From the IMG/VR virus record IMGVR_UViG_2681813166_000002, positions 1 to 36,955 of that record: a DNA stretch of 36,955 bases. One strand, given 5' to 3'. This document shows, piece after piece, positions 3,068 through 31,204 of the stretch. The notes under the pieces were generated by a model that did not search any database, was not told where the DNA came from, and was given only the letters and a program-made list of their open reading frames with translations. The position numbers were made by a program, and so were the translations under genes. The DNA comes from a virus (lineage: Duplodnaviria; Heunggongvirae; Uroviricota; Caudoviricetes). Every line of letters starts with the position of its first letter. Within the stretch, counting starts at the first letter, position 1.

Positions 3068-3760
3068 TTATCCATGCTTCCTGTACGTCTGCGGCATGCT
3101 CCCGATGACTTTCCCGAAGATGAACACTCGGTTCATCTCGTCTTTCTCGATCGGGTCCCACGGTGAGTAGCTCTTGTTATCAGAGATAACCAGCAGCTTA
3201 TCCTTCATCATTTGCAGACGTTTTACATGAGCGGTTTCGTCGTAGAGGAACGCATAAATCCCATCGCCGTCGAACGATTTGACGCTGATATCGACGAACA
3301 GCAGGTCACCTGGTTCGATCGTTCCTGACATGCTGTCGCCACGCACGTTAATAATGCGGATGTTTTCTGCTTTGCGGCCATCAAACATGTGACGCGCATC
3401 ATCATGGGAGTACTCAACCGATCGCAAAACTTCAACGAACTCACGGTTAATGACGCCTGGCCCTGCACTTACTTCCATATCAAGAACGTCAATCTTGAAG
3501 TATTTGGAAGAGCAGGTCGCCGGTTTTCCTGGCTGAACGCCATTATCCCTCATAGGGCCTATGCCTGAGGAAAGCCATTCAGTGCGAACCCCAAGTGCAT
3601 TAGCGATTTCGACAATTCTTGTAGATCCGCGTGCATTGCCGCTTGTCAGTCTCCAGATTGTGGGTTGAGCTACACCAGACGCCTTTGCAAGAGCGCCTTG
3701 AGACATTCCAGATTGTTCCATCGCTAGGTTTAAGCGATCAGCAAGAGTTTCTTTTTTCAT
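3068..3760 (-). CDS. cI: CI-type prophage repressor (HTH plus S24 LexA-like peptidase domain)
   Basis: HTH-like N-terminus (QGALAKASGVAQPTIWRL) and C-terminal S24-like segments (GDSMSGTIEPGDLLFVD, VKRL); start set at ATG 3760 (MKKETLADR...); the ORF track extends to a TTG at 3796. Confidence 0.88.
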   Translation of the reverse strand: MKKETLADRLNLAMEQSGMSQGALAKASGVAQPTIWRLTSGNARGSTRIVEIANALGVRTEWLSSGIGPMRDNGVQPGKPATCSSKYFKIDVLDMEVSAGPGVINREFVEVLRSVEYSHDDARHMFDGRKAENIRIINVRGDSMSGTIEPGDLLFVDISVKSFDGDGIYAFLYDETAHVKRLQMMKDKLLVISDNKSYSPWDPIEKDEMNRVFIFGKVIGSMPQTYRKHG

Positions 3761-3870
3761 AAGTTTTAATTTATACGCTTGCGTATCGATGGTCAAAACA
3801 CGTTTTGCTATTGCTATGCTTAATACGCATTGCTATTATTTGTTCATTGCAATACCAATAGGAATTGATA
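3761..3870. promoter_or_regulatory. OR region with divergent pRM (leftward) and pR (rightward) and repeated operator motifs
   Basis: pR: TTGCTA (3811-3816), 17-bp spacer, TATTAT (3834-3839). pRM on minus strand: TTGACC (3791-3796) and TATAAA (3770-3775). Repeated TTGCTATTGCTAT and CATTGCTATTAT motifs; ATTGCAAT palindrome. Confidence 0.55.
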
Positions 3871-4098
3871 ATGACAAATCAAACCATTCAACTCGCAATC
3901 AGTATTACAGGTAGTCAAAAACGACTGGCAGATCTATGCGGTGTAGCCCAACCCACTGTTTGGCGTTGGCTACACGGTGGCGGAATTGATGCCCGCTATG
4001 TAATGAAAATTGTCTCAGCCACTGGTGGAAAGATTAAACCAGCAGATATTCGTCCCGACCTCGCACCATTGTTTAACGCGAGTAATTCTGCCGCCTAA
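3871..4098 (+). CDS. cro: Cro-like HTH regulator
   Basis: 75-aa ORF divergent from cI; HTH-like QKRLADLCGVAQPTVWRW; AGGA RBS 7 nt upstream of ATG 3871. Confidence 0.75.
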   Translation: MTNQTIQLAISITGSQKRLADLCGVAQPTVWRWLHGGGIDARYVMKIVSATGGKIKPADIRPDLAPLFNASNSAA

Positions 4099-4122
4099 AC
4101 TGCGGCGTTAACTGATAAGGCA

Positions 4123-4668
4123 ATGACTATGCAACCACTTACATACCAACAGACTAGCGGATTTAGCCCGACTGCGGTGATAAATCGTTCTCAAACAAAA
4201 CAAGCTCCAGGCCACGAAAAAATCCGTGATGCCGTCCGCGCCTGGTCGGCTGCAGATAATCAGGATGTTGTTGCCGCACTCATTGTGAATGAGTATCGGG
4301 AGCAGGGCGGCGGCACCATCGATTTCCCTGATGATGTCAGCCGTGCACGCCAGAAGCTGTTCCGCTTCCTCGATAACAAATTCGATTCTGAAAAATACCG
4401 AAATAACGTGCGTGAACTGACCCCGGCAATTCTGGCGGTACTACCGCTGGAATATCGTGGTTACTTGGTTGAGCAGGATAGCTTCATGGCTAGGTTGGCT
4501 GAAATGGAAAAGGAACTCAGTGAGGCAAAACAGGCTGTCATTCTCAACGCACCACGCCACCAGAAACTGAAGGAGATGAGTGAAGGCATTGTGTCGATGT
4601 TTCGTGTGGACCCGGATTTGGCTGGTCCACTGATGGCGATGGTCACCACCATGCTGGGGGCAATATGA
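4123..4668 (+). CDS. Hypothetical protein in the cII position (181 aa), possibly a CII/YdaT-like regulator
   Basis: ORF between cro and O; not recognisable as lambda CII; function inferred from position only. Confidence 0.55.
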   Translation: MTMQPLTYQQTSGFSPTAVINRSQTKQAPGHEKIRDAVRAWSAADNQDVVAALIVNEYREQGGGTIDFPDDVSRARQKLFRFLDNKFDSEKYRNNVRELTPAILAVLPLEYRGYLVEQDSFMARLAEMEKELSEAKQAVILNAPRHQKLKEMSEGIVSMFRVDPDLAGPLMAMVTTMLGAI

Positions 4669-4754
4669 CAGGTTCAGAAATGGCGAAAGCCGGTCTGCGC
4701 GAACAGAACCGACTTTCAGGTGCAAATCGTAACACACTCATTGCGGGAGGAATT

Positions 4755-5684
4755 ATGGCAAACACTGCTGAGATATTCAATTTTCCAGTGCCGGATGAGG
4801 CACAAAAGGAGCGGCGCGTGGCAGATCTCGATGATGGTTATACGCGCATTGCAAATGAGTTGCTGGAAGCTGTAATGCTGGCAGGATTAACACAGCACCA
4901 GCTTCTGGTCTTCCTGGCTGTCATGCGCAAAACATATGGCTTTAATAAAAAACTGGATTGGGTGAGCAACGAGCAACTTTCCGAATTGACCGGGATATTG
5001 CCGCACAAGTGTTCTGCTGCAAAAAGCGTTCTGGTAAAGCGTGGGATTCTTATTCAGAGCGGGCGGAATATCGGCATCAATAATGTGGTCAGTGAATGGT
5101 CAACATTACCCGAATCAGGTAAGAAAAATAAAGTTTACCTGAAAGAGGTAAATTTACCTGAATCAGGTAAGAAAAGTTTACCCAAATCAGGTAAAGGCGT
5201 TTACCCGAATCAGGTAAACACAAAAGACAAACTAACAAAAGACAATATAAAACCTTTTTCGTCCGAGAATTCTGGCGAATCCTCTGACCAACCAGAAAAC
5301 GATCTTCCTGTGGTGAAACCAGATGCTGCAATTCAGAGCGGCAGCAAGTGGGGGACAGCAGAAGACCTGACCGCCGCAGAGTGGATGTTTGACATGGTGA
5401 AGACTATCGCACCATCAGCCAGAAAACCGAATTTTGCTGGGTGGGCTAACGATATCCGCCTGATGCGTGAACGTGACGGACGTAACCACCGCGACATGTG
5501 CGTGCTGTTCCGCTGGGCATGCCAGGACAACTTCTGGTCCGGTAACGTGCTGAGTCCGGCCAAACTCCGCGACAAGTGGACCCAGCTCGAAATCAACCGA
5601 AACAAGCAACAGGCTGGCGTGACAGCCGGCAAACCAAAACTCGACCTGACGAACACTGACTGGATTTACGGGGTGGATTTATGA
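4755..5684 (+). CDS. O: Replication initiator O
   Basis: MANTAEIFNFPVPDEAQKERRVADLDDGY... and a C-terminal half (ENSGESSDQPENDL...TNTDWIYGVDL) matching my recollection of lambda O; GGGAGG RBS; track ORF extends upstream to 4665. Confidence 0.92.
   Translation: MANTAEIFNFPVPDEAQKERRVADLDDGYTRIANELLEAVMLAGLTQHQLLVFLAVMRKTYGFNKKLDWVSNEQLSELTGILPHKCSAAKSVLVKRGILIQSGRNIGINNVVSEWSTLPESGKKNKVYLKEVNLPESGKKSLPKSGKGVYPNQVNTKDKLTKDNIKPFSSENSGESSDQPENDLPVVKPDAAIQSGSKWGTAEDLTAAEWMFDMVKTIAPSARKPNFAGWANDIRLMRERDGRNHRDMCVLFRWACQDNFWSGNVLSPAKLRDKWTQLEINRNKQQAGVTAGKPKLDLTNTDWIYGVDL
5105..5262. repeat. Replication origin: five ~19-bp palindromic iterons followed by an AT-rich tract, inside O
   Basis: ATTACCCGAATCAGGTAAG, TTTACCTGAAAGAGGTAAA, TTTACCTGAATCAGGTAAG, TTTACCCAAATCAGGTAAA, TTTACCCGAATCAGGTAAA, then ACAAAAGACAAACTAACAAAAGACAATATAAAACC. 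Confidence 0.8.
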
Positions 5685-6382
5685 AAAACATCGCCGCACA
5701 GATGGTTAACTTTGACCGTGAGCAGATGCGCCGGATCGCCAACAACATGCCGGAACAGTACGACGAAAAGCCGCAGGTACAGCAGGTAGCGCAGATCATC
5801 AATGGTGTGTTCAGCCAGTTACTGGCAACTTTCCCTGCGAGCCTGGCTAACCGGGATCAGAACGAACTGAACGAAATCCGCCGCCAGTGGGTTCTGGCTT
5901 TCCGGGAAAACGGGATCACCACAATGGAACAGGTTAACGCAGGAATGCGCGTAGCCCGTCGGCAGAATCGACCATTCCTGCCATCACCCGGGCAGTTTGT
6001 TGCCTGGTGCCGGGAAGAAGCATCCGTTACCGCCGGGCTGCCAAACGCCAGCGAGCTGGTTGATATGGTTTACGAGTATTGCCGGAAGCGTGGCCTGTAT
6101 CCGGACGCAGAGTCTTATCCATGGAAATCAAACGCGCACTACTGGCTGGTTACCAACCTGTACCAGAACATGCGGGCCAATGCGCTTACTGATGCGGAAT
6201 TACGGCGCAAGGCTGCCGATGAACTGTCCTGTATGACCGCGCGAATTAACCGTGGTGAGGCGATACCTGAACCAGTAAAACAGCTTCCTGTCATGGGCGG
6301 TAGACCTTTAAATCGTGCACAGGCTTTGGCGAAGATCGCAGAAATCAAAGCTAAGTTCGGACTGAAAGGAGCAAGTGTATGA
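5681..6382 (+). CDS. P: Replication protein P (DnaB helicase loader)
   Basis: 233-aa ORF MKNIAAQMVNFDREQMRRIANNMPEQYDEKPQ... matches my recollection of lambda P. Confidence 0.95.
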   Translation: MKNIAAQMVNFDREQMRRIANNMPEQYDEKPQVQQVAQIINGVFSQLLATFPASLANRDQNELNEIRRQWVLAFRENGITTMEQVNAGMRVARRQNRPFLPSPGQFVAWCREEASVTAGLPNASELVDMVYEYCRKRGLYPDAESYPWKSNAHYWLVTNLYQNMRANALTDAELRRKAADELSCMTARINRGEAIPEPVKQLPVMGGRPLNRAQALAKIAEIKAKFGLKGASV

Positions 6383-6666
6383 CGGGCAAAGAGGCAATTA
6401 TTCATTACCTGGGGACTCATAAGAACTTCTGTGCGCAGGACGTTGCCGCGGTAACAGGCGCAACCGTAACCAGTATAAATCAGGCTGCGGCTAAAATGGC
6501 GCGGGCAGGAATCCTGGTCGTTGATGGTAAGGTCTGGCGAACGGTGTATTACCGGTTCGCTACCAGAGAAGAACGGGAAGGAAAGGTGAGCACGAATCTG
6601 ATTTTTAAGGAGTGTCGTCAAAGTGCCGCGATGAAGCGGGTGTTGGCTTTATATGGAAGAGAGTAG
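6379..6666 (+). CDS. ren: Ren
   Basis: 95-aa ORF MTGKEAIIHYLGTHKNFCAQDVAAVTGATVTSINQAAAKMARAG... recognised as lambda Ren. Confidence 0.9.
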   Translation: MTGKEAIIHYLGTHKNFCAQDVAAVTGATVTSINQAAAKMARAGILVVDGKVWRTVYYRFATREEREGKVSTNLIFKECRQSAAMKRVLALYGRE

Positions 6667-6730
6667 GTATGAGCAATTATTGTTACTAATTTTAGTTTTA
6701 CGACATTCGTGATAACTAAATAATTGATGT

Positions 6731-6985
6731 GTGGAACTGAATTATAAAGGGGATGATGTTTTGGGAAATAAAGAAAATATCGATTGTAAGCACACAAGAA
6801 GCTCATGCTATAAAAACAAGCAGATGAAAGATGTTATTTATATTACATTGCCTAAACTCACTGAAGAAGAAGTAGAGATTTTTAAGGGACCAATGCATAA
6901 AGCATTGCTTGCAGGGGTAAATGTTACAAAAAAGGCAGTTTCTGATGCCCTGCTAAACAAAGGGATAAAAGTTGAATTTAAATAG
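6731..6985 (+). CDS. Hypothetical small protein in AT-rich insertion; start uncertain (GTG 6731 or ATG 6824)
   Basis: 84-aa ORF on the track; weak translation signals; convergent with the 472-aa gene. Confidence 0.3.
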   Translation: MELNYKGDDVLGNKENIDCKHTRSSCYKNKQMKDVIYITLPKLTEEEVEIFKGPMHKALLAGVNVTKKAVSDALLNKGIKVEFK

Positions 6986-6996
6986 AGTAATTCAGT

Positions 6997-7028
6997 GGCA
7001 ACAATAGCACTCATTTGTGAGTGCTGTT
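6997..7028. terminator. Hairpin between convergent genes; possible bidirectional terminator
   Basis: AGCACTCA-tttg-TGAGTGCT perfect 8-bp stem with flanking extension; no clear U-tract on either strand. Confidence 0.35.
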
Positions 7029-7036
7029 GAAATTTA

Positions 7037-8455
7037 TTAGAAAATAATGTTTGCTATATCCGAGATAGCATTTAAAGAACCTCTGTGGTCACTTCCTGTT
7101 TTAGGTAAAATATAGGAATATCGAGGGTCTTCATTATATGTTAACTTCCAGTGTTTTCCATCGCTTGACGCACTGAAACCTAAGTCCTTTAAATTTCTTT
7201 GTGTTGCGCTATCCATGCTTCTGTAACCTGTTAAAGTCCTTTTAAGTAATTGGCGGCGACTCTCGGTTTCTTTATTGTATTCATTATTGGCAATTAGGGA
7301 TGATAAGATATGGTAGCTTCTACCAAATTCATTTTTATTTTTTATGGCAGTTTTTAGTGCGTCAATAATTATATTTTTGATTTCTCCATCAAAAAAGTCA
7401 GTCTCTTCACCAGCATTAAGCACAATGCTTCCTTGGGCTGAAGCTTGTGATTGAAGAGTGCGTACTCTGTGCTCTAAAGAGGAGATCTTATGCTTAAGAT
7501 CTTCTATTTGGTCATCTTTCGCAACATTATCGGCTTCGTAAAGCGCCATCAGTTCGCGTGTGTATTCTCCTCTTTCTTTGAGTGAGTTAATAGAGTCTTT
7601 CGTTTTTCTGGTTTGTATCTCACTCCATCCACTATCTGAGACAGGAGCCATTGTAGTCGTAGCTCTTACAACATCATCAAATAACTCATCTTCAAATTCT
7701 TTTGCGGTTTTCTCACCACGGCGATAAAAACTGATATTTTGACCCCGTGGCCAATAGATACCAACAGCACCAGCATAGGCATTTTTAGCATTTGTCTCAT
7801 TTTTTAGCTTAATAGAAAATAGTCTATTGCTAGGCTCAATTAATACATGTGCTAATCCGCATACCTTTCTTGCAAGGCGTTCTGGGATGATATTGTGAGC
7901 ATGTTCATTAAAAAAATACTTGGAGCTAACGTATATTATTGGTAGTCTGTTGTCAGTTTCACCATTTATAACTTTAGCTGCTATATTTAAATGTTCATCA
8001 GTATCATCTAAGGAATGAGGTTCGACTGACACCTTGAAAATATCATCAAGACCACCAGAAAATTTATCAATCAATCTCATAACAACTAATGGTTTCTTAG
8101 GTTGCGGGGCTAGATAAGCTGCATCTTGGCTTACAACGCTAGATTCCACCTGAATCCACATGGTATCAGTTTTGAGATTTTTATTAATTGAAATATCTGT
8201 TACCCATTTGTGTGGCTCAGATATTTTCGAATACCTAAAACAGCCTAAACTAGTATCTTTGTTTTTATAAGTTATTATATCAATTCTTTCATTTTTAGAC
8301 TCTATGAAGTACTCCTCGCTTTTATAATCACATACTAATTGTGCTGGAATAAAAGTTGTATGTGGTGAGTCGTTTACCCAAGAAAAACATTCATTAAAGA
8401 TCTCAGCTAGAGATGTGGAGTTTGAAACATAAAAACCAGTTGAGAAATATTTCAT
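7037..8455 (-). CDS. Hypothetical 472-aa orphan protein, candidate accessory or defence gene
   Basis: Long intact ORF in markedly AT-rich DNA, opposite strand to flanking phage genes; AAGGAAA RBS 7 nt upstream of ATG; no motif I recognise. Confidence 0.75.
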   Translation of the reverse strand: MKYFSTGFYVSNSTSLAEIFNECFSWVNDSPHTTFIPAQLVCDYKSEEYFIESKNERIDIITYKNKDTSLGCFRYSKISEPHKWVTDISINKNLKTDTMWIQVESSVVSQDAAYLAPQPKKPLVVMRLIDKFSGGLDDIFKVSVEPHSLDDTDEHLNIAAKVINGETDNRLPIIYVSSKYFFNEHAHNIIPERLARKVCGLAHVLIEPSNRLFSIKLKNETNAKNAYAGAVGIYWPRGQNISFYRRGEKTAKEFEDELFDDVVRATTTMAPVSDSGWSEIQTRKTKDSINSLKERGEYTRELMALYEADNVAKDDQIEDLKHKISSLEHRVRTLQSQASAQGSIVLNAGEETDFFDGEIKNIIIDALKTAIKNKNEFGRSYHILSSLIANNEYNKETESRRQLLKRTLTGYRSMDSATQRNLKDLGFSASSDGKHWKLTYNEDPRYSYILPKTGSDHRGSLNAISDIANIIF

Positions 8456-8472
8456 GAAATTTCCTTATTAAA

Positions 8473-8490
8473 AATGAGATTAATCTCATT
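8473..8490. promoter_or_regulatory. Perfect 18-bp palindrome in the 5' region of the 472-aa gene; candidate operator
   Basis: AATGAGATTAATCTCATT is its own reverse complement and lies between a promoter-like region and the RBS. Confidence 0.3.
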
Positions 8491-8729
8491 GGCTATGATA
8501 ATTGTTACCCTCCTTTGGATCTAGTGTTCATTTGACATAAGAACCTATTGATTCATCATAATCAACTCGCCATAATCATGTCATCGGAGCCTGAACAACT
8601 CCGGTGACTTCTGCGCTAAACGGGGACGTTTATGCGCACATACAATCCAAACTCTCTTCTCCCTTCACAGATGCAGAGATGCACCTGCGATTTTTTGCAT
8701 CCAGCGTTTGACCTCTGCGGAGGTGAAGC

Positions 8730-9185
8730 GTGAACCTCCCACAAGACGGCATCAAATTGCATCGTGGTAACTTCACTGCTATCGGTCAGCAGATCCAGCC
8801 TTATCTGGAGGACGGCAAATGCTTTCGCATGGTGCTTAAACCGTGGCGCGAAAGACGCAGTCTTTCCCAGAATGCACTCAGCCACATGTGGTACAGCGAA
8901 ATCAGTGAGTACCTCATCAGCAGGGGGAAATCGTTCGCTACTGCAGCATGGGTAAAAGATGCTCTCAAACACACATACCTCGGTTATGAAACCAAGGACC
9001 TGGTTGATGTCGTAACCGGCGAAATCACTACGATCCAGTCGTTACGCCATACCTCCGATCTTGATACCGGAGAGATGTATGTCTTCCTGTGTAAGGTTGA
9101 AGCCTGGGCGATGAATATTGGCTGCCACCTGACTATTCCGCAGAGCTGCGAGTTCCAGCTGCTGCGCGACAAGCAGGAGGCGTAA
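8730..9185 (+). CDS. ninB: NinB/Orf-family recombination protein
   Basis: 151-aa ORF with [21 protein letters not shown] resembling the NinB RSLDQN region; position after ren; GTG start with GGAGG RBS. Confidence 0.75.
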
Positions 9186-13692: not shown

Positions 13693-13732
13693 TATACCCG
13701 CGAAAAATGAAATTTAACCAGGAGTGCCGCAT

Positions 13733-14227
13733 ATGGCTGGAACGGCGGGGCGTTCCGGGCGTCGCCCCAAGCCAACGGCGCGCAAGACGCTGGCCGGAAA
13801 CCCCGGCAAGCGAGCCCTGAACAAAGATGAACCTGTTTTTACGCCCATCAAAGGTGTTGAGCCACCAGAGTGGTTCGCTGAAGAAGATCTCCCTCTCGCC
13901 ACGATCATGTGGCAACTGACAACCAAAGAACTCTGCGGTCAGGGCCTGCTGTGCGTGACTGACCTGGCGGTACTTGAGCGGTGGTGCGTGGCCTATGAGT
14001 TCTGGCGACGTGCCGTGAAAAATATTGCCATACAGGGCAACACCATCACCGGTGCAATGGGCGGCAGGGTCAAAAATCCGGAGCTGACCGCCAAAAAAGA
14101 ACAGGAGTCCGAGATGAGCAGCACGGGGGCAATGCTCGGACTCGACCCCAGCAGCCGCCAGCGTCTGATTGGCCTGGCGGGGCAGAAGAAAGCCACTAAC
14201 CCGTTTCTGAAAATTATCGAATCATGA
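13733..14227 (+). CDS. Terminase small subunit
   Basis: Basic N-terminus [30 protein letters not shown] typical of P27/HK97-type TerS; GGAG RBS; ATGA overlap with terL. Confidence 0.8.
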
Positions 14228-15957
14228 GCCGGAAATCTTACCCCAACGTAAATGCTGCAAATCAGTATGCCCGGGATGTCGTGCGCGGAAAGATTGTTGC
14301 CTGCCAGTTTGTGATTCAGGCCTGCCAGCGCCATCTTGATGACCTGATGGCGGAAAAAAATAAGTCGTTTCGTTACCGCTTCGACAAGGACCTGGCTGAA
14401 CGGGCCGCCAAATTTATTCAGCTGTTGCCGCACACCAAGGGTGAGTGGGCATTTAAGAGGATGCCCATCACGCTGGAGCCGTGGCAGCTCTTTGTGATCT
14501 GCTGCGCGTTTGGCTGGGTCAATAAAGGTACCCGGCTGCGCCGCTTCCGTGAGGTGTATACCGAAATCCCACGTAAGAACGGCAAATCGGCAATCTCTGC
14601 CGGTGTCGCCCTGTATTGTTTTGCCTGTGATAACGAGTTCGGCGCGGAAGTGTATTCCGGTGCCACGACGGAGAAACAGGCATGGGAAGTCTTTCGTCCG
14701 GCAAGACTGATGTGTAAACGCACACCCATGCTGATGGAAGCGTTCGGGATTGAGGTTAACGCCTCAAACATGAACCGTCCGGAGGATGGTGCGCGTTTTG
14801 AACCGCTGATCGGTAACCCCGGTGATGGTTCATCACCCCACTGTGCGGTGGTGGATGAATATCACGAGCACGCCACAGATGCGCTTTACACCACGATGCT
14901 TACCGGGATGGGGGCGCGACGTCAGCCACTGATGTGGGCTATCACTACCGCCGGGTACAACATTGAGGGGCCGTGCTACGACAAACGGCGGGAAGTCATC
15001 GAGATGCTCAACGGCTCGGTGCCTAACGATGAACTGTTCGGGATCATCTATACCGTTGATGAAGGTGACGACTGGACCGACCCGCAGGTGCTGGAAAAAG
15101 CCAATCCAAATATTGGCGTGTCGGTTTATCGCGAATTTTTGTTAAGTCAGCAGCAGCGTGCGAAAAATAACGCCCGTCTGGCAAACGTCTTTAAAACAAA
15201 ACACCTCAATATCTGGGTGTCGGCGCGTTCGGCGTATTTCAACCTGGTGAGCTGGCAGAGCTGCGAGGATAAATCACTGACCCTTGAGCAGTTCGAGGGG
15301 CAGCCGTGCATTCTGGCCTTTGACCTGGCGCGTAAACTGGATATGAACAGCATGGCGCGACTTTATACCCGCGAGATTGACGGTAAAACGCATTACTACA
15401 GTGTGGCCCCGCGTTTCTGGGTACCGTATGACACGGTGTACAGCGTCGAGAAAAATGAAGATCGACGGACAGCCGAACGCTTTCAGAAATGGGTGGAAAT
15501 GGGCGTTCTGACCGTTACCGATGGTGCGGAGGTGGATTATCGCTACATCCTCGAGGAGGCCAAAGCGGCGAACAAAATCAGTCCGGTCAGTGAGTCACCC
15601 ATCGACCCCTTCGGGGCGACCGGGTTGTCACATGACCTTGCTGATGAAGACCTGAACCCCATCACTATCATTCAGAACTACACCAACATGTCCGACCCGA
15701 TGAAAGAGCTGGAAGCGGCAATTGAATCGGGGCGCTTTCATCATGATGGCAATCCCATCATGACCTGGTGTATCGGCAACGTGGTCGGCAAAACCATTCC
15801 GGGTAACGATGATGTGGTGAAGCCCGTCAAAGAGCAGGCGGAAAACAAAATTGACGGTGCAGTTGCGCTGATTATGGCGGTTGGCAGAGCCATGCTGTAC
15901 GAGAAAGAAGACACGCTGTCTGACCACATTGAGTCCTATGGGATCCGCTCGCTTTAA
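14224..15957 (+). CDS. Terminase large subunit
   Basis: 577-aa ORF with ATPase-like region ([11 protein letters not shown]) and C-terminal nuclease-type region; standard position. Confidence 0.9.
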
Positions 15958-15968
15958 CTGAGGTAATT

Positions 15969-16151
15969 ATGATCATGCTGATTCTCGCGCCTCTGGTGGG
16001 CGTGCTGGGGGCGCTTTTGCTGGCGTATGGTGCCTGGCTGATTTATCCCCCGGCGGGGTTTGTTGTTGCCGGGGCGTTGTGCCTGTTCTGGTCGTGGCTG
16101 GTGGCGCGATATCTCGACCGTACACAGCTGTCTGTTGGTGGAGGTAAATAG
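15969..16151 (+). CDS. Hypothetical small membrane protein (60 aa)
   Basis: Two hydrophobic helices; between terL and portal. Confidence 0.4.
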
Positions 16152-17392
16152 TGTTCTTTTCGGGATTATTTCAACGAAAAAGTGACGCACCGGTGACCAC
16201 GTCAGCAGAGCTGGCGGATGCCATCGGGTTGTCCTACGACACCTATACCGGAAAGCAGATCAGCAGTCAGCGGGCCATGCGACTGACGGCGGTTTTTTCC
16301 TGCGTCAGAGTGCTGGCAGAGTCGGTCGGGATGTTGCCCTGCAATCTGTATCACCTGAACGGCAGCCTGAAGCAGAGAGCCACCGGCGAACGTCTGCATA
16401 AACTGATCTCCACGCATCCCAATAGCTATATGACGCCGCAGGAGTTCTGGGAGCTGGTGGTCACCTGTCTGTGCCTGCGGGGAAATTTTTACGCCTACAA
16501 AGTGAAAGCATTTGGCGAAGTGGCTGAACTGCTGCCCGTCGATCCCGGTTGTGTGGTACCGAAGCTTAACAGTAGCTGGGAACCGGTTTACCAGGTCACA
16601 TTTCCGGACGGCTCCACGGATGTACTGAGCCAGGAAGATATCTGGCATGTGCGCACGCTGACGCTGGACGGTCTGGTGGGACTGAATCCCATCGCCTATG
16701 CCCGCGAGGCAATATCGCTGGCGGCAGCGACCGAAGAGCACGGGGCCAGACTGTTCAGCAATGGCGCGGTGACGTCGGGTGTGTTGCGTACAGAGCAGAC
16801 GCTGTCGGATCAGGCTTATGAGCGCCTGAAGAAAGATTTTGAGGAGCGTCACACCGGGCTTGGCAATGCTCACCGCCCGATGATCCTTGAGATGGGGCTG
16901 GACTGGAAGTCGATGGCGTTGAACGCAGAGGACAGCCAGTTCCTGGAAACCCGCAAGTTTCAGCTTGAAGAAATCTGTCGTCTGTTCCGGGTGCCATTGC
17001 ACATGGTGCAGAACACCGATCGCGCCACCTTCAACAATATCGAAGAACTGGGGCTCGGATTTATCAACTATTCACTGGTGCCGTATCTGACCCGCATCGA
17101 ACAGCGGATCAACACCGGACTGGTACGAAAAAGTAAGCAGGGCGTTTATTACGCCAAATTTAACGCCGGGGCGTTACTGCGCGGGGATATGAAGTCCCGT
17201 TTTGAAGCCTACGCCACCGGGATTAACTGGGGAATTTACTCTCCCAATGACTGCCGCGACCTGGAAGATATGAATCCGCGTCCCGGTGGGAATGTCTATC
17301 TCACACCGATGAACATGACCACGAAACCCTCCGATGGCAGTAAAGCCGGTAAGCAGAAGGATAACGCCAATGCAGACGAAACAACGTCTTGA
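16151..17392 (+). CDS. Portal protein (HK97 family)
   Basis: 413-aa ORF after terL; GTG start with GGAGG RBS; size and position typical. Confidence 0.88.
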   Translation: MFFSGLFQRKSDAPVTTSAELADAIGLSYDTYTGKQISSQRAMRLTAVFSCVRVLAESVGMLPCNLYHLNGSLKQRATGERLHKLISTHPNSYMTPQEFWELVVTCLCLRGNFYAYKVKAFGEVAELLPVDPGCVVPKLNSSWEPVYQVTFPDGSTDVLSQEDIWHVRTLTLDGLVGLNPIAYAREAISLAAATEEHGARLFSNGAVTSGVLRTEQTLSDQAYERLKKDFEERHTGLGNAHRPMILEMGLDWKSMALNAEDSQFLETRKFQLEEICRLFRVPLHMVQNTDRATFNNIEELGLGFINYSLVPYLTRIEQRINTGLVRKSKQGVYYAKFNAGALLRGDMKSRFEAYATGINWGIYSPNDCRDLEDMNPRPGGNVYLTPMNMTTKPSDGSKAGKQKDNANADETTS

Positions 17393-18020
17393 TGTACCGC
17401 TGAGTCTGAAATCTGTCAGTGACTCCGGTGAGTTTGAAGGGTATGGCTCCGTCTTTGGTGTAAAGGACAGCCACGATGATGTGGTGATGTCCGGGGCATT
17501 TGCTGCTTCCCTGCGGGCGTGGAGTGACAGAAAAGCGTTACCTGCGCTGCTCTGGCAGCACCGCATGGATGAACCCATCGGTGTTTACACCGAAATGAAG
17601 GAAGACGATGTCGGGCTTTACGTCAGGGGACGGTTGCTTATTGATGATGATCCCCTCGCAAAACGCGCACATGCACACATGAAGGCCGGTTCGTTAACCG
17701 GCCTTTCTATTGGGTACGTCCTGAAAGACTGGGAATACGACCGGAGCAAAGAAGCCTTTCTGCTGAAAGAAATCGACCTCTGGGAAGTCAGCCTGGTGAC
17801 GTTCCCGTCTAACGACGAGGCGCGGATCAGCGACGTCAAGAACGCACTGGCCCGCGGGGAAATCCCCGAACAGAAAAAAATCGAAAGAGTCCTGCGTGAT
17901 GTCGGACTCTCCCGTACCCAGGCCAAAGCATTCATGGCCGGGGGCTATGGCGCACTGTCCCTGCGCGACGCTGAGGATGTGGGCTCTGCACTGAATGCAC
18001 TGAAAAATCTGAACTTCTAA
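17370..18020 (+). CDS. Prohead protease (HK97 family)
   Basis: ORF after portal; start set at ATG 17370 with AAGGA RBS (track ORF begins at 17334, overlapping the portal). Confidence 0.85.
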   Translation: MQTKQRLDVPLSLKSVSDSGEFEGYGSVFGVKDSHDDVVMSGAFAASLRAWSDRKALPALLWQHRMDEPIGVYTEMKEDDVGLYVRGRLLIDDDPLAKRAHAHMKAGSLTGLSIGYVLKDWEYDRSKEAFLLKEIDLWEVSLVTFPSNDEARISDVKNALARGEIPEQKKIERVLRDVGLSRTQAKAFMAGGYGALSLRDAEDVGSALNALKNLNF

Positions 18021-18034
18021 TCAGGAGAAATACG

Positions 18035-19240
18035 ATGGCGGTTGATATTAAAGATGTCGAACAGGTCGCGCAGGAGCTGCAGCAGAAGTTTGACGACTTC
18101 AAAGCAAAGAACGACAAGCGCGTGGATGCGATTGAGCAGGAAAAAGGCAAACTTGCCGGGCAGGTGGAAACTCTGAACGGGAAACTCAGCGAGCTGGAAA
18201 ATCTCAAAAGCGACCTTGAAAAAGAGCTGCTTGAGCTGAAACGTCCGGCTGGTGGAGCGCAAAATAAACTGGCCACCGAGCATAAAGAGGCGTTTGTGGG
18301 CTTCCTGCGTAAAGGCCGTGAAGACGGTCTGCGCGATCTGGAGCGTAAGGCATTGCAGGTGGGTACCGATGAAGACGGTGGCTACGCCGTGCCGGAAGAA
18401 CTGGATCGCAACATTCTTAACCTGCTGAAAGATGAAGTGGTGATGCGTCAGGAAGCCACGGTGATCACCGTTGGCGGTTCCGACTACAAAAAACTGGTGA
18501 ATCTGGGCGGTACGGCTTCCGGATGGGTGGGGGAAACGGATACGCGATCCCAGACTGCCACCTCCAGACTGGAGCTGATTGAACCTCTCATGGGGGAAAT
18601 CTACGGCAACCCGCAGGCTACCCAGAAAATGCTGGACGATGCCTTCTTCAACGTGGAGGCCTGGATCAACAGCGAGCTGGCAACCGAATTTGCCGAACAG
18701 GAAGAAATTGCCTTTACCTCCGGCGATGGCACCAAGAAGCCGAAAGGGTTCCTGGCGTATGAATCCACGGATGAAACCGACAAGGTCCGGGCGTTTGGCA
18801 AACTTCAGCATATTGTATCCGGTGAAGCGACTGCGGTGACCGCTGATGCCATTATCAAACTGATTTACACGCTGCGTAAGGCACATCGCACCGGTGCGAA
18901 GTTCATGATGAACAACAACAGCCTGTTTGCCATTCGTCTGCTGAAAGACACCGAGGGTAACTATCTGTGGCGTCCTGGGCTGGAACTGGGGCAGCCATCC
19001 TCTCTGGCGGGTTACGGTATCGCTGAAAACGAGCAGATGCCGGATATCGCCGCGGATGCGAAAGCCATTGCATTTGGTAACTTCAAACGGGGTTACACCA
19101 TCGTTGACCGTATCGGTACCCGCATTCTTCGCGATCCGTACACCAATAAACCGTTTGTCGGTTTTTATACCACCAAGCGCACCGGCGGCATGCTGGTCGA
19201 TTCGCAGGCCATCAAACTGCTGAAGATTGCTGCGGCGTAA
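18035..19240 (+). CDS. Major capsid protein (HK97 fold, N-terminal coiled-coil delta domain)
   Basis: 401-aa ORF with coiled-coil N-terminus and capsid-like body; follows the protease. Confidence 0.9.
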   Translation: MAVDIKDVEQVAQELQQKFDDFKAKNDKRVDAIEQEKGKLAGQVETLNGKLSELENLKSDLEKELLELKRPAGGAQNKLATEHKEAFVGFLRKGREDGLRDLERKALQVGTDEDGGYAVPEELDRNILNLLKDEVVMRQEATVITVGGSDYKKLVNLGGTASGWVGETDTRSQTATSRLELIEPLMGEIYGNPQATQKMLDDAFFNVEAWINSELATEFAEQEEIAFTSGDGTKKPKGFLAYESTDETDKVRAFGKLQHIVSGEATAVTADAIIKLIYTLRKAHRTGAKFMMNNNSLFAIRLLKDTEGNYLWRPGLELGQPSSLAGYGIAENEQMPDIAADAKAIAFGNFKRGYTIVDRIGTRILRDPYTNKPFVGFYTTKRTGGMLVDSQAIKLLKIAAA

Positions 19241-19290
19241 TCATTCAGGGGCGCGGAACCGCGCCCCCTGTTCTGACAGGTGAAAGAATC

Positions 19291-19491
19291 ATGATCCTGA
19301 AACAAGATCTGAAATGGTCACCGGACGGTATGCGTGTTGAGGTCATTCGGGCCGGTGAGTATGGCGACGGGGCGCTTCCTGCCCGGGTGCAGGAGATTGC
19401 ACTTCAGGCCGGGTTAGCAGAACGCGGAACCAGTGCAAAAAGCAGTAAAGCGACAAAAGAGAAAAAAGCCACGACCAGTAAAGAGGGCTGA
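19291..19491 (+). CDS. Hypothetical small head-module protein (66 aa)
   Basis: ORF with lysine-rich C-terminus between capsid and connector genes. Confidence 0.4.
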   Translation: MILKQDLKWSPDGMRVEVIRAGEYGDGALPARVQEIALQAGLAERGTSAKSSKATKEKKATTSKEG

Positions 19492-19493
19492 GT

Positions 19494-19817
19494 ATGCTTC
19501 TGACAATGGAAGAGATTAAAGCCCAACTCCGGCTGGATGAGGATTTCGATGCTGATGACCGCCATCTGCAACTGCTGGCCTGTGCGGCGCAAAAGCGGAC
19601 GGAAACGTATCTGAACCGGAAGCTCTATGCACCGGATGAAACCATTCCGGACAGCGATCCGGACGGGCTGCACCTGCCGGATGATATTCGTCTGGGGATG
19701 CTGATGCTTATCAGCCATTTTTACGAAAACCGCTCGTCGGTTACGGAAGTGGAGAAACTCGACATGCCGCAGAGTTTTGGCTGGCTTGTCGGCCCGTACA
19801 GGTACTTTCCGCAATGA
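19494..19817 (+). CDS. Head-tail connector / DNA-packaging gp6-like protein
   Basis: 107-aa ORF; typical size and position after the major capsid. Confidence 0.7.
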   Translation: MLLTMEEIKAQLRLDEDFDADDRHLQLLACAAQKRTETYLNRKLYAPDETIPDSDPDGLHLPDDIRLGMLMLISHFYENRSSVTEVEKLDMPQSFGWLVGPYRYFPQ

Positions 19818-20224
19818 AAATTCGTCAGGCGCAGACCAGCGCAACCTACATTCTGCCGGACCCCGGTGAACTGAATAAACGCGTCCTGATCCGCCTGCGG
19901 GTGGATGTGCCTGCGGATAACTTTGGCGTGGAGCCTCAATACCCGGTTACGTTCCGGACATGGGCGAAGGTTATCCAGACCAGTGCCACCACCTGGCAGG
20001 AAACCGCGCAGACCGGGGACGCCATCACCCATTACATCACCATTCGTTATCGCCGGGGGATCACCGCTGATTATGAGGTGGTCTGCGGTGACAGTGTGTA
20101 CCGGGTGAAACGTCAGCGCGATCTGAACGGGGCGCGGCGCTTTCTGCTGCTGGAGTGTACGGAGCTGGGCGAATGTAGGCAGAGTCACGGAGGCAACAAT
20201 GACGACTTCCTTTTTGCACGTTGA
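19814..20224 (+). CDS. Head closure / head-tail adaptor protein
   Basis: 136-aa ORF coupled by ATGA overlap to the preceding gene; function inferred from position. Confidence 0.6.
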   Translation: MKIRQAQTSATYILPDPGELNKRVLIRLRVDVPADNFGVEPQYPVTFRTWAKVIQTSATTWQETAQTGDAITHYITIRYRRGITADYEVVCGDSVYRVKRQRDLNGARRFLLLECTELGECRQSHGGNNDDFLFAR

Positions 20225-20705
20225 TTTTCAGCAGCCCGCGGAGATGCGCTTTAACCGCGCCCGTGTCCGGCGGGCGTTTGTCACGATTGGTCAGCGTCAT
20301 ATGCGTGATGCCCGTCGGCTGGTGATGCGCCGTGCGCGGTCGACACCGGGTGAAAACCCCGGTTATCAGACCGGACGCCTGGCTCGTTCGATTGGTTACA
20401 TGGTACCCAGAGCCAGTAAAAAGCGAGCCGGTTTTATGACACGTATAGCCCCTAACCAGCGTAATGGAGAGGGAAACCGCCGTATCACCGGTGATTTTTA
20501 TCCGGCTTTTTTGTTCTATGGCGTGAGGCGATGGGCAAAGCGTCGTCGCAGCCATCATCGTGGTGCATCCGGTGGCAGCGGCTGGCGACTGGCTCCACGT
20601 AATAACTTCATGGTGGAAACGCTTGAAAAGAACCGCAGCTGGACACGCTATTTTCTGGCGCGGGAATTGCGTAAATCACTGAAGCCGGAGCGACGACACA
20701 GATGA
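20199..20705 (+). CDS. HK97 gp10-like tail-component protein
   Basis: 168-aa basic ORF in the neck module. Confidence 0.6.
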   Translation: MTTSFLHVDFQQPAEMRFNRARVRRAFVTIGQRHMRDARRLVMRRARSTPGENPGYQTGRLARSIGYMVPRASKKRAGFMTRIAPNQRNGEGNRRITGDFYPAFLFYGVRRWAKRRRSHHRGASGGSGWRLAPRNNFMVETLEKNRSWTRYFLARELRKSLKPERRHR

Positions 20706-21262
20706 AACTGACGCCTGTTATTGCTGCGCTGCGTGCCCGCTGCCCGTATTTTGAAAACCGGGTGGCAGGCGCGGCACAGTTCAAAAATCTGCCGGAGGTC
20801 GGAAAGCTGAGACTCCCGGCGGCGTATGTGGTACCGGGTGATGACTCTCCGGGAGAAAACAAAAGCCAGACCGACTACTGGCAGGAGCTGAAAGAGGGCT
20901 TCTCCGTGGTTGTCATACTGAGTAACGGGCGTGATGAGCGCGGTCAGTTTGCTTCGTATGATGTGGTGGACGATGTCCGGCAGATGCTCTTTAAGGCTCT
21001 GCTGGGCTGGAACCCGGAGGCGTGCGGTAACCCGATTACCTATGACGGCGGCACGCTGCTGGATCTGAATCGTCATGAGCTGATTTATCAGTTCGATTTT
21101 TCGGTCATCAGCGAGCTGACTGAAGACGATACCCGCCAGCAGGATGATCTGAACAGTCTGGATGAACTGCAAACGCTGGCGATTGATGTTGATTATCTCG
21201 AGCCCGGTAACGGGCCTGACGGCGATATCGAACATCACACCGAAATAACCCTTCCTTCCTGA
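20702..21262 (+). CDS. Tail completion / neck protein (function inferred from position)
   Basis: 186-aa acidic ORF between neck genes and sheath. Confidence 0.5.
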   Translation: MKLTPVIAALRARCPYFENRVAGAAQFKNLPEVGKLRLPAAYVVPGDDSPGENKSQTDYWQELKEGFSVVVILSNGRDERGQFASYDVVDDVRQMLFKALLGWNPEACGNPITYDGGTLLDLNRHELIYQFDFSVISELTEDDTRQQDDLNSLDELQTLAIDVDYLEPGNGPDGDIEHHTEITLPS

Positions 21263-21270
21263 GGATCCTC

Positions 21271-21441
21271 ATGTTTGTCAAACCTGTTAAAGGGCGGTCA
21301 GTTCCTGACCCTGCCCGCGGCGACCTTTTGCCCGCCGAAGGGCGAAATGTTGACGAGAACAACTACTGGCTGCGCCGTGAAGCAGCGGGTGATATCCGGC
21401 GCGTGAATAAAAAGGTGAATACCGATGACGATAAGTTTTAA
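21271..21441 (+). CDS. Small DUF2635-like protein preceding the sheath gene (56 aa)
   Basis: Translated by hand: MFVKPVKGRSVPDPARGDLLPAEGRNVDENNYWLRREAAGDIRRVNKKVNTDDDKF. Confidence 0.45.
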   Translation: MFVKPVKGRSVPDPARGDLLPAEGRNVDENNYWLRREAAGDIRRVNKKVNTDDDKF

Positions 21442-22921
21442 CACCATTCCGTCGAATACGCTGGTTCCGTTGTTTTATGCGGAAATGGATAACCAGGCGG
21501 CGAATACTGCACAGGACAGCGGAGCATCGCTGCTGATTGGTCATGCCAATAACGGTGCAGAAATTGTTGCCAACAGTCTGGTACTGATGCCGTCGGCAGA
21601 CTATGCCCGCCAGATTTGTGGTGCGGGAAGTCAGCTGGCGCGTATGGTCGAGGCTTATCGCCAGACTGACCCGTTTGGTGAACTGTATGTGATTGCCGTT
21701 CCTGAATCCACAGGCGCGGCGGCAACGGTTACGCTGACGGTGACCGGGGCGGCAACCGAAACCGGCACGGTGAATGTGTATGTGGGACGTACCCGCGTGC
21801 AGGCACCGGTGACTAACGGCGATAACGTCACGATGATTGCCAGTAGTATTCAGAATGCCATCAATGCCGTTCCGACCCTGCCGTTTACGGCTTCATCTTC
21901 GGCAGGCGTGGTCACACTGACCGCGCGTCATAAGGGGCTTTGCGGGAATGAAATTCCTGTCAGCCTCAATTACTACGGCTTTGGTGGGGGCGAAGTGCTG
22001 CCAGCGGGCGTACAGATTGCCGTGGCGACGGGTACCGCCGGAACGGGTGCTCCGGTTCTCACCGGCGCGGTGGCTGCAATGGCGGATGAGCCGTTTGATT
22101 ATATCGGCCTGCCGTTCAACGACACGGCCTCCGTTAACACGCTGGTGACCGAGATGAACGATACCAGCGGTCGCTGGAGCTATGCGCGTCAGCTGTATGG
22201 TCATGTGTATACGGCAAAGATCGGCACGCTGTCAGAACTGGTGACCGCAGGTGACCAGTTTAACCAGCAGCACATTACCCTGGCGGGGTACGAAAAAGAG
22301 ACCCAGACGCCTGCCGACGAACTGGCGGCAAGCCGTACCGCCCGCGCAGCGGTGTTTATTCGCAACGATCCGGCACGTCCCACGCAGACCGGTGAGCTGG
22401 TGGGTATGCTGCCTGCGCCGAAGGGGAAACGGTTCACGATGACCGAACAACAGACCCTGCTGTCTCATGGCGTGGCAACGGCGTATGTCGAAAGCGGGGT
22501 ACTGCGCATTCAGCGTGATGTCACCACGTACAGGAAAAACGCTTACGGGGTTGCGGATAACAGCTACCTCGACAGTGAGATACTGCATACCAGCGCGTAT
22601 GTACTGCGCAAACTGAAATCCGTCATTACCAGTAAGTACGGGCGTCACAAGCTTGCCAGTGACGGTACCCGCTTTGGTCCCGGTCAGGCGATTGTCACCC
22701 CGGCGGTGATCAAAGGGGAACTGCTGGCAACCTACCGTCAGCTTGAGCGTGCGGGGATCGTGGAAAACTACGAACTGTTTAAGCAGTACCTGGTTGTGGA
22801 GCGTGATGCCAGCGATCCGAACCGCCTGAACACGCTGTTCCCGCCTGACTATGTTAACCAGTTGCGTGTCTTTGCCGTGGTTAACCAGTTCCGTCTTCAG
22901 TATTCAGAGGAGTCTGCATAA
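21425..22921 (+). CDS. Contractile tail sheath protein
   Basis: 498-aa ORF followed directly by a ~118-aa tube gene, the standard myovirus arrangement. Confidence 0.85.
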   Translation: MTISFNTIPSNTLVPLFYAEMDNQAANTAQDSGASLLIGHANNGAEIVANSLVLMPSADYARQICGAGSQLARMVEAYRQTDPFGELYVIAVPESTGAAATVTLTVTGAATETGTVNVYVGRTRVQAPVTNGDNVTMIASSIQNAINAVPTLPFTASSSAGVVTLTARHKGLCGNEIPVSLNYYGFGGGEVLPAGVQIAVATGTAGTGAPVLTGAVAAMADEPFDYIGLPFNDTASVNTLVTEMNDTSGRWSYARQLYGHVYTAKIGTLSELVTAGDQFNQQHITLAGYEKETQTPADELAASRTARAAVFIRNDPARPTQTGELVGMLPAPKGKRFTMTEQQTLLSHGVATAYVESGVLRIQRDVTTYRKNAYGVADNSYLDSEILHTSAYVLRKLKSVITSKYGRHKLASDGTRFGPGQAIVTPAVIKGELLATYRQLERAGIVENYELFKQYLVVERDASDPNRLNTLFPPDYVNQLRVFAVVNQFRLQYSEESA

Positions 22922-23277
22922 TGGCCCGTATCGGGGGAACCTGTTATTTCAAAATTGACGGTCAGCAGCTATCGCTGACCGGCGGCATTGAGGTGCCCAT
23001 GAACAGGACGGTCAATGATGACATCATCGGCCTGGACGGTTCAGTGGACCGCAAGGAAACTCACCGTGCGCCCTATGTCAAAGGGACCTTCAAGGTGCCG
23101 AAGAATTTTCCGGTGAGCAAAATCACCTCGTCTGATGAGATGACCATCACTGCCGAGCTGGCGAACGGTCAGGTCTATGTACTGTCGTCTGCCTGGCTGC
23201 ACGGCGAAGCGAACCATAATGCCGAAGAAGGCACGGTTGATCTTGAGTTCCACGGTGAAGAAGGGGATTACCAGTAA
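22921..23277 (+). CDS. Tail tube protein
   Basis: 118-aa ORF directly after the sheath gene. Confidence 0.8.
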   Translation: MARIGGTCYFKIDGQQLSLTGGIEVPMNRTVNDDIIGLDGSVDRKETHRAPYVKGTFKVPKNFPVSKITSSDEMTITAELANGQVYVLSSAWLHGEANHNAEEGTVDLEFHGEEGDYQ

Positions 23278-23546
23278 TGAAAGAGCTTGAGTTAAAGAAA
23301 CCGATTACTGCTCATGGCGAGACACTCTCCGTACTTGAGTTTGATGAGCCCACCGGGAAAGATGTCCGCGAGCTGGGGTATCCCTACCAGATGAATCAGG
23401 ATGAGTCAGTCAGACTTCTGGCGCATGTGGTATCGAAATACATTGTGCGGCTGGCGAAAGTGCCGCAAAACTCTGTCGACCAGATGTCTCCGGCAGACCT
23501 GAATGCTGCGGCGTGGCTTGTGGCTGGTTTTTTCCTCCAGGCCTGA
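23277..23546 (+). CDS. Tail assembly chaperone (G-like)
   Basis: 89-aa ORF between tube and tape measure genes; overlapping -1 frame ORF downstream. Confidence 0.7.
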   Translation: MKELELKKPITAHGETLSVLEFDEPTGKDVRELGYPYQMNQDESVRLLAHVVSKYIVRLAKVPQNSVDQMSPADLNAAAWLVAGFFLQA

Positions 23547-23695
23547 CGGCTGAATACCTCACTGATCGCTTCTTTGACTGCGCCAGTTACTGGCGCATTA
23601 ATCCCTTCGAATTGCTGAATATGCCGATCAGTGAAATTCCCTTGCTGGTCAGTCAGGCAAACAGGATAGAGCAGGAGAAACGCACACATGGCTGA
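23528..23695 (+). CDS. Frameshift extension of the tail assembly chaperone (T-like, -1 frame)
   Basis: Slippery heptamer T_TTT_TTC at 23528-23534; the -1 frame stays open to 23695, overlapping the tape measure start. Confidence 0.55.
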   Translation, partial: FFPPGLTAEYLTDRFFDCASYWRINPFELLNMPISEIPLLVSQANRIEQEKRTHG

Positions 23696-25520: not shown

Positions 25521-25611
25521 CCAGAATTCCCCTCACATGTATTGCTGGTTGTAAGTCATAAATAGAGTGATAGAATTAATGCACATTTAGAAAAATGTTA
25601 ATAGGCGAAAA

Positions 25612-26142: not shown

Positions 26143-26159
26143 TTAATAAAATTCATTAC

Positions 26160-26190
26160 AAGGCCACCTTCTAATAGGTGGCTTTTTTAT
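26160..26190 (+). terminator. Intrinsic terminator after the moron
   Basis: GCCACCT-tctaat-AGGTGGC followed by TTTTTTATTTT. Confidence 0.65.
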
Positions 26191-26203
26191 TTTCGGAGTG
26201 TAT

Positions 26204-31201: not shown

Positions 31202-31204
31202 TCC

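Follow-up and report, generated by a model that had tools for sequence, protein, structure and literature searches.

The stretch of DNA analyzed here (hereafter the window) comprises 36,955 nucleotides, positions 1 to 36,955 of the Caudoviricetes record IMGVR_UViG_2681813166_000002 in IMG/VR. Between ren and ybcN, two genes of a lambda-like prophage, the window harbors an AT-rich insert with a minus-strand gene for a protein of 472 amino acids (aa). Judged by its sequence, this gene is an allele of DS-10, a one-gene defense system that has already been published and validated; the finding is therefore a re-discovery, and another copy in a lambdoid prophage is expected biology. The remaining interest lies in the mechanism of DS-10 and in a likely effector swap between DS-10 and HEC-07, another single-gene defense protein. 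The gene and the parts of its product are as follows (ORF, open reading frame; AF2, AlphaFold2; RNase, ribonuclease):

7037–8455, minus strand: 472-aa gene, allele of defense system DS-10 (ORF; 395/399 identity to WP_087897267.1)
8111–8455, minus strand: predicted N-terminal alpha/beta domain, aa ~1–115, one helix on a 6-stranded antiparallel sheet (AF2 model)
7646–8098, minus strand: predicted thioredoxin-fold domain without CxxC, aa ~120–270
7445–7627, minus strand: predicted long helices, aa 277–337, coiled-coil-like, with the LYE-x-(D/E)-N motif common to HEC-07 (AF2 and HEC-07 alignment)
7232–7384, minus strand: predicted helical linker domain, aa 358–408, with invariant E358 and R379 (AF2; conservation in 149 relatives)
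7040–7210, minus strand: probable C-terminal HicA-like domain, aa 416–472, alpha-beta-beta-beta-alpha, presumed RNase effector (AF2 unit)
7151–7153, minus strand: His435 codon; the residue does not vary in the family and aligns with the catalytic His23 of Escherichia coli HicA

The 472-aa protein, which is entered in RefSeq as WP_042028685, “hypothetical protein,” is identical to WP_087897267.1 at 395 of the 399 residues printed in Table S8 of PMC13092281; this identity covers residues 1–399 of 472, residues 400–472 of WP_087897267.1 not being printed there. The substitutions relative to DS-10 are T62N, V124I, S133P, and I215T. No mention was found in a literature search by the RefSeq accession of the 472-aa protein. 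WP_087897267.1 is DS-10 (working ID ZAPB), a one-gene system of 472 aa in E. coli GCF_003334705.1, which derives from the DefensePredictor study (bioRxiv 2025; Science 2026; PMC13092281, Tables S7, S8, and S11) and is classed in its tables as a “predicted novel defense gene.” In the assays of that study, each transcription unit, under the control of the predicted native promoter, was carried by a low-copy plasmid in strain MG1655 and assayed against 24 phages; the DS-10 clone, pCV1-ZAPB in MG1655, is listed as validated (PMC13092281). Bas1 formed 3e6 plaque-forming units (PFU) on the reference and 30 with DS-10, a negative logarithm of the efficiency of plating, −log(EOP), of 5, plaque size being unflagged (PMC13092281, Table S7). 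The values for Bas3 were 1e8 and 1e8 PFU (−log(EOP) 0) and those for lambda 6e7 and 1.1e7 PFU (−log(EOP) 0.74), both with smaller plaques (PMC13092281, Table S7). The single-gene anti-phage function guessed at in the original prediction is thus matched by a 99%-identical gene which, cloned alone, cut Bas1 plating by 5 logs (PMC13092281).

DS-10 and the window protein are alike in the length of 472 aa, in the HicA-like domain at residues 416–471, in forming a one-gene unit, and in the downstream DNA. They differ in four residues and in the far-upstream flank, and the phenotype is published for the DS-10 allele only. The reverse cloning primer of DS-10 matches window positions 6937–6958 exactly, so that the clone begins 79 bp past the stop codon, spans the hairpin downstream of the gene, and holds the last 49 nt of an 84-aa ORF described below. 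HHpred analysis of DS-10 by the authors of DefensePredictor gave HicA (6HPB_C) at residues 416–471 with a probability of 0.91; their main text just mentions “a HicA mRNA interferase” domain as newly validated in defense, and DS-10 itself is undiscussed there (PMC13092281).

The original prediction described the gene as an orphan that could not be matched to any family, and in these two points it did not hold. Among the 5.8 billion proteins covered by a word-indexed search, Enterobacterales, Pseudomonas, and Caulobacter contributed 75 full-length relatives with a length of ~470 aa. An exhaustive profile search yielded 3,463 representative clusters at E <= 1e-3 and 1,038 at E <= 1e-30; of the 150 top matches listed, nearly all measure 460–480 aa. 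This large family has a HEC-07-like scaffold, matched by PADLOC, and a recognizable HicA-like C-terminus. Scans of Pfam and NCBIfam placed the 472-aa protein in no family and gave just coiled-coil noise, and a search of PDB sequences with the full-family profile yielded coiled-coil proteins only; these matches are attributable to the long helices at aa 277–337. In PHROGs, one 72-position PHROG of unknown function matched the C-terminus. A motif search agreed with the original prediction that a Walker A motif is absent, and CxxC is absent as well.

The AF2 model was built on 43 homologs and has a mean predicted local distance difference test score (pLDDT) of 82. In the coiled-coil-like region, the model places helices at 277–294 and 300–337. 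In 149 representatives with 23–39% identity to the query, five residues never vary (D137, P172, E358, R379, and H435), and 30 further positions, including G200, A202, H203, V204, E207, and P208, are conserved at >=90%. Conserved residues of the thioredoxin-fold domain are P172, Y175, S177, G200-x-A202-H203-V204, E207, P208, and P236. Every family-invariant residue is retained in the window allele.

HEC-07 (WP_033943166.1, Pseudomonas aeruginosa) is a validated single-gene defense protein in which an N-terminal domain resembling AdoMetDC precedes a thioredoxin-like domain that lacks CxxC and, at the C-terminus, a RelE-like RNase with the conserved H543 (Payne et al., 2024; bioRxiv 10.1101/2024.01.29.577857). 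The 472-aa protein likewise has an N-terminal domain ahead of a thioredoxin-like domain that lacks CxxC. The PADLOC model for HEC-07, PDLC04161, matches it with E 1e-9 (residues 83–334 against profile positions 107–366 of 553), and the same model is matched by 43 out of 43 relatives, at best with 1.9e-14. For a family-to-family comparison, the tested HEC-07 protein (549 aa) and its relatives were recovered; hhalign aligned residues 8–367 of the 472-aa family with 30–423 of HEC-07 at Prob 97.7% and E 1.5e-12, with 16% identity. The GxAHV motif is aligned, H203 facing the invariant H219 of HEC-07, and so is the LYE-x-DN motif. By these alignments, the scaffold, made up of an alpha/beta domain at the N-terminus, a redox-dead thioredoxin fold carrying the GxAHV histidine, and a coiled coil, is homologous to that of HEC-07.

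The last ~100 residues lie outside this alignment, and the C-terminal profile compared with the HEC-07 C-terminus by hhalign reached a Prob of 1.3%. By the same value, a visual likeness of the two C-termini, H-x-K...R-[YF], was ruled out. The tail motif of HEC-07, RLYFFWDDE...VVVGWLPSH543, which is of RelE/ParE type, is absent from the 472-aa protein. A Pfam scan of HEC-07 proteins detected no RelE domain, so the term “RelE-like” for HEC-07 rests on the structural comparison by Payne et al. and the visible motif. With the alignment ending before the last ~100 residues, DS-10 and HEC-07 have a common scaffold and different effectors. We lean towards placing the two in one superfamily, in which a common phage-sensing scaffold is combined with interchangeable mRNA-interferase effectors, HicA-like in one and RelE-like in the other. 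The two proteins are alike in ending with a small domain of mRNA-interferase type with a conserved histidine, and differ in length (549 and 472 aa) and in the C-terminus (RelE/ParE-like with H543 and HicA-like with H435, respectively). Furthermore, HEC-07 is found embedded in Hma (helicase-methylase-ATPase) systems, whereas the 472-aa gene and its relatives occur in cargo slots, satellites, prophages, and the chromosome. In the portions of the sources available, this link appears not to have been reported previously, since DS-10 was filed as a novel gene instead of under the structural or remote homologs of known systems. If the superfamily reading is true, the scaffold is the sensor and the effector is a swappable cassette. 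DS-10 and HEC-07 are a natural domain-swap pair, with a 360-residue scaffold and a swapped RNase, for asking which part senses the phage.

The C-terminal domain is probably, though not proven to be, a divergent HicA-like domain; several independent lines, each weak singly, point to this. Pfam HicA_toxin is the commonest family among the relatives (5 of 23 and 15 of 142, the 15 at E <= 0.05; best 8.3e-4), and a HicA-like model of PADLOC matches 6 of 43 relatives (best 2.6e-5). When a C-terminal profile of 142 sequences was aligned by hhalign with E. coli HicA (PDB 6hpb_A, sequence verified), Prob was 84% and E was 7.5e-6, and the invariant His435 fell opposite His23 of that toxin. No other residue of the domain is invariant across 142–149 relatives, and G433, two residues before His435, is conserved at >=90%, which may be compared with the Gly22/His24 pair of Burkholderia pseudomallei HicA. 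The corresponding histidine is needed for the RNase activity or toxicity of HicA (PMC11594946). Searched against PDB, the 142-sequence profile found HicA 6hpb_A as its sole match at E <= 10, with E = 1, and a 23-sequence C-terminal profile found no HicA.

Compared with the HicA toxins of type II HicAB modules, as represented by E. coli HicA (PDB 6HPB), the domain here is similar in the aligned G-x-H motif, with His435 opposite His23, and this sequence similarity exists at the profile level only. Unlike those toxins, it is fused to an N-terminal region of 415 residues and lacks HicB: no HicB-like domain or neighboring gene was detected by Pfam in any context scanned, including the loci of homologs. 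The 14 contexts of HicA listed by Gerdes (2024) do not include this architecture, class 13 being mostly helical and class 14 an SMC fusion, and neither the architecture of the 472-aa protein nor HEC-07 is described in Gerdes's HicA and RelE surveys. For the mechanism of DS-10, His435 and Gly433 in the HicA-like domain are a lead.

The explanation that fits best, and one we hold to be quite likely, is that the gene is an allele of DS-10, a stand-alone defense moron of a lambda-like prophage which encodes a sensor fused to a HicA-like effector. The near-identity, the phenotype of DS-10, the scaffold homology with HEC-07, the solitary gene, and the cargo slot are grounded here or in the literature, and from there we infer an RNase activity, auto-inhibition, a trigger, and an abortive outcome. 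The scaffold, composed of the N-terminal domain, the redox-dead thioredoxin fold, and the coiled coil, would be the sensor, and the helical linker would join it to a HicA-like domain with the fold of a double-stranded RNA-binding domain. The scaffold, probably dimerized through its coiled coil, would hold the HicA-like RNase silent and release it on sensing some component of an infecting phage. Once released, the HicA domain would cut RNA through His435 independently of the ribosome, and translation would stop; phage production would be blocked, probably at the price of growth arrest of the infected cell. Because there is no HicB-like antitoxin, restraint of the effector must be intramolecular in such a scheme. 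For fused HicA proteins, such restraint has been put forward on the model of CapRel(SJ46) (PMC10865869). As in CapRel(SJ46), a sensor or antitoxin part would restrain a translation-targeting toxin until a phage protein is sensed. CapRel(SJ46) has no relation to the 472-aa protein in sequence or fold, and the toxin chemistries differ, tRNA pyrophosphorylation there and presumably RNase here.

Several points weigh against this explanation. The DefensePredictor strain list (PMC13092281) contains no DS-10 mutants and thus no catalytic mutant, so that a dependence of DS-10 on RNase is presumptive. The window allele differs from the tested DS-10 by four substitutions, with all but its last 73 residues covered by the comparison, and the forward cloning primer of DS-10 has no match in the window, the far-upstream region being different from the cloned fragment. 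The window protein itself does not match Pfam HicA_toxin (PF07927/COG1724), so that its assignment is sub-threshold, and fold searches of the isolated C-terminal domain were not significant. An abortive outcome, dimerization, and auto-inhibition are assumptions of the model.

The main rival explanation accepts that DS-10 defends and places the active site elsewhere, for example at H203/E207 of the thioredoxin fold, the HicA-like domain only binding RNA or regulating. H203, E207, D137, and P172 are indeed invariant or nearly so, GxAHV is common to HEC-07 despite the different C-terminus, and the structural support for HicA is weak. We nevertheless regard this rival as rather unlikely, as His435 is the sole invariant residue of the C-terminal domain and aligns with the catalytic histidine of HicA, the thioredoxin fold here carries no known catalytic motif, and both sister families end in a domain of mRNA-interferase type, which fits a swapped effector on a common sensor. 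That the family relationship alone settles the matter, the protein being simply a member of HEC-07 with the RelE-type RNase of Payne et al., is suggested by the PADLOC match and the hhalign Prob of 97.7%; with an alignment at ~16% identity which ends at residue 367, a C-terminal Prob of 1.3%, and no RelE-type motif, this is highly improbable.

The gene could also be chiefly a fused toxin-antitoxin (TA), or addiction, module which stabilizes a prophage or satellite and defends as a side effect. In favor of this reading, HicA is a classical toxin of type II systems, fused HicA proteins encoded by a single cistron have been termed TA-like (PMC10865869), and the gene is located on mobile elements, satellites and prophages. 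The absence of a HicB-like domain or neighbor, the occurrence of some homologs in ordinary chromosomal contexts, and the measured phenotype, a 5-log fall in phage plating from a plasmid clone, make this explanation very unlikely. Just as improbable as plain membership in HEC-07 is an inert, hitch-hiking or decaying gene that has no function in this prophage: the DS-10 data do come from another allele, four substitutions apart, but the ORF and its ribosome-binding site are intact, the family-invariant residues are kept, and the alleles are 97–100% identical across 24 genomes.

Turning to expression, the following signals and the neighboring small ORF were found around the DS-10 allele:

8462–8466, minus strand: ribosome-binding site AAGGA, 6 nt 5′ of the ATG at 8455 (read from the sequence)
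8555–8584, minus strand: best sigma-70-like promoter match, ATGACA-18-TATGAT, 10/12 positions (consensus match only)
7002–7029, no strand: inverted repeat with a 12-bp stem and a 4-nt loop between the convergent ORFs (RNA fold −12.9 kcal/mol, z = −3.2)
6731–6985, plus strand: 84-aa ORF with a GTG start, accompanying the cassette in E. coli

A promoter-like region and a ribosome-binding site of the gene's own had been pointed out in the original prediction. AAGGA is present, and the promoter match at 8584–8555 alone proves nothing because such matches are common in the AT-rich DNA of the insert, where they are over-represented (15 against 7.9 +/- 3.3 expected). The native upstream DNA of the near-identical DS-10 allele gave sufficient expression for defense on a plasmid (PMC13092281). 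Probably, the 472-aa gene is transcribed from its own promoter, against the early-right operon, and a lysogen could thereby express it. The convergent arrangement with a small plus-strand ORF across a hairpin, likewise noticed earlier, was found to be real in both the 84-aa ORF and the hairpin, the latter being a possible bidirectional terminator with a weak T-tract.

The 84-aa ORF has no family match in scans of Pfam, PADLOC, PHROGs, and NCBIfam, and its relatives are near-identical proteins of 84–88 aa only. In one genome, RefSeq annotates it as “phospholipase D-like”; a phospholipase-D remnant was ruled out by the lack of a family match and by this narrow range of relatives. Since the published clone begins at the window-equivalent position 6937, the ORF is dispensable there. 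It is missing beside distant homologs of the 472-aa gene, and the active DS-10 clone retains no more than its final 49 nt; together, these findings ruled out a partner or antitoxin. The 84-aa ORF is not part of the defense unit, and its status as a genuine gene is uncertain.

The cargo segment and its backbone flanks are delimited as follows:

6379–6666, plus strand: ren, left backbone flank (ORF, homology, RefSeq annotation)
6658–8537, no strand: AT-rich cargo segment (composition and homology breakpoints of the lambdoid backbone)
8538–8729, plus strand: nin-region leader, backbone and not insert, including a 33-aa annotated ORF at ~8632–8733
8730–9185, plus strand: ybcN (NinB-like, 151 aa), right backbone flank (ORF, Pfam, RefSeq)

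The G+C content is 0.348 across 6658–8537 (1,880 bp) and 0.357 in the 472-aa gene, compared with 0.510 and 0.501 in the 2-kb flanks of the insert and 0.494 in the whole window. Homology with phages and prophages breaks at ~6657 on the left, 9 nt 5′ of the stop codon of ren, and picks up again at ~8538–8560 on the right; there, 8538–8729 is conserved backbone of the nin leader, which >2,800 E. coli records contain. Thus, of the AT-rich ~2-kb insertion originally proposed, the low-GC block stands, and its right end moves from 8729 to ~8538–8560, which leaves 1.88 kb. An intact 472-aa ORF on the strand opposite to the flanks, as it had been described, is the sole long ORF in the block. Because the homology of ren breaks before its stop (6658–6666), the incoming cargo supplies the final codons for Ren, which has 95 aa here. 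The 151-aa product of the right-flank gene matches Pfam NinB with E 1.4e-4, just below the cut-off, and is named “DNA base-flipping protein YbcN” in RefSeq. An Rfam scan of 6300–9000 found no known RNA.

The cassette is found in 24 of 5,426 complete E. coli genomes, with alleles 97–100% identical in DNA. Other prophages have at least five further kinds of cargo, or no cargo, between the same ren and ybcN breakpoints, and the junction behaves as a cargo hotspot. The slot is empty in SfI (ren-ninA-ninB), is occupied in PA28 by a homing endonuclease (HNH) and three small ORFs, holds an acyltransferase and a lipoprotein in PhiR30_1 and several genomes, and in others contains a DUF4145 protein with theta, or TagO, or RecT. 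In E. coli strain LR-50 (4790–7475), this cassette is followed by further cargo, namely a protein with a P22AR C-terminal domain, a theta subunit with a frameshift, and a pair of hypothetical proteins. The comparison of junctions confirms the insertion hotspot suspected in the original prediction, and the gene is not backbone at the junctions of related phages; the view of an acquired moron in a variable region is supported by the G+C content (0.348 against 0.50), the 24 of 5,426 genomes, and the alternative cargoes. The ren-nin junction of lambdoid prophages is therefore, as a cargo slot, worth mining.

The site of the DS-10 forward primer lies, in LR-50, just 5′ of the ybcN leader, which suggests, and does not prove, that the source of DS-10 also has the gene at the ren-ybcN junction, with a variant leader. 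In LR-50, ~260 bp 5′ of the defense gene match the window leader at 8456–8715, and a partial leader ORF of its own stands before ybcN there, indicating that a leader segment around the added cargo arose by duplication or recombination.

There are other contexts outside the lambdoid slot. A 77%-identical paralog, found in hundreds of contigs, is located beside the integrase in P4-like satellites with a DUF927 primase, which occupy at least two chromosomal sites; the family is thus also carried in the hotspot near the integrase of such satellites. At the DNA level, the paralog loci resemble the window in the ORF only. A Pseudomonas homolog adjoins a prophage integrase, beside HipA_C-like and HIRAN genes, and a Caulobacter homolog and a metagenome-derived one are located in ordinary chromosome. 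No conserved neighbor was found across the Salmonella/E. coli, Pseudomonas, Caulobacter, and metagenome-assembled-genome loci, and the 472-aa gene is solitary in all contexts examined. At the Pseudomonas donghuensis locus, two genes directly 5′ of the homolog (4094–5813), at the prophage end, have weak HipA_C and HIRAN matches and may be another defense pair in the same integrase-proximal slot.

Some features lie elsewhere in the window. Directly 3′ of a cI-like repressor with an S24 peptidase and a helix-turn-helix (3068–3796, minus strand), two ORFs of 130 and 132 aa (2181–2573 and 2594–2992, both minus strand) occupy the slot of lambda rexAB; Pfam and PADLOC gave no match for them. In strain MB20, this slot after cI encodes a DUF6932 protein and a hypothetical protein of 310 aa; with its contents differing in this way, it is a second variable cargo slot with possible defense genes. 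The position of cII (4123–4668, plus strand) holds a 181-aa protein with YdaT_toxin (E 1.5e-29), as in MB20 and LR-50. A 294-aa ORF with DUF4145 (33700–34584, minus strand; E 2.4e-10) beyond the tail genes is a candidate moron, and a DUF4145 protein is also one of the alternative ren-ybcN cargoes, in strain 19M19. The late region (13700–32600, plus strand) seems unlike that of lambda and encodes a 577-aa terminase, a sheath-sized ORF of 498 aa (21425–22921), a tape-measure-sized ORF of 610 aa, and baseplate-sized ORFs. From the ORF sizes and the SfI match only, the prophage seems to combine a lambda-type early region with late genes of myovirus type (SfI/P27-like).

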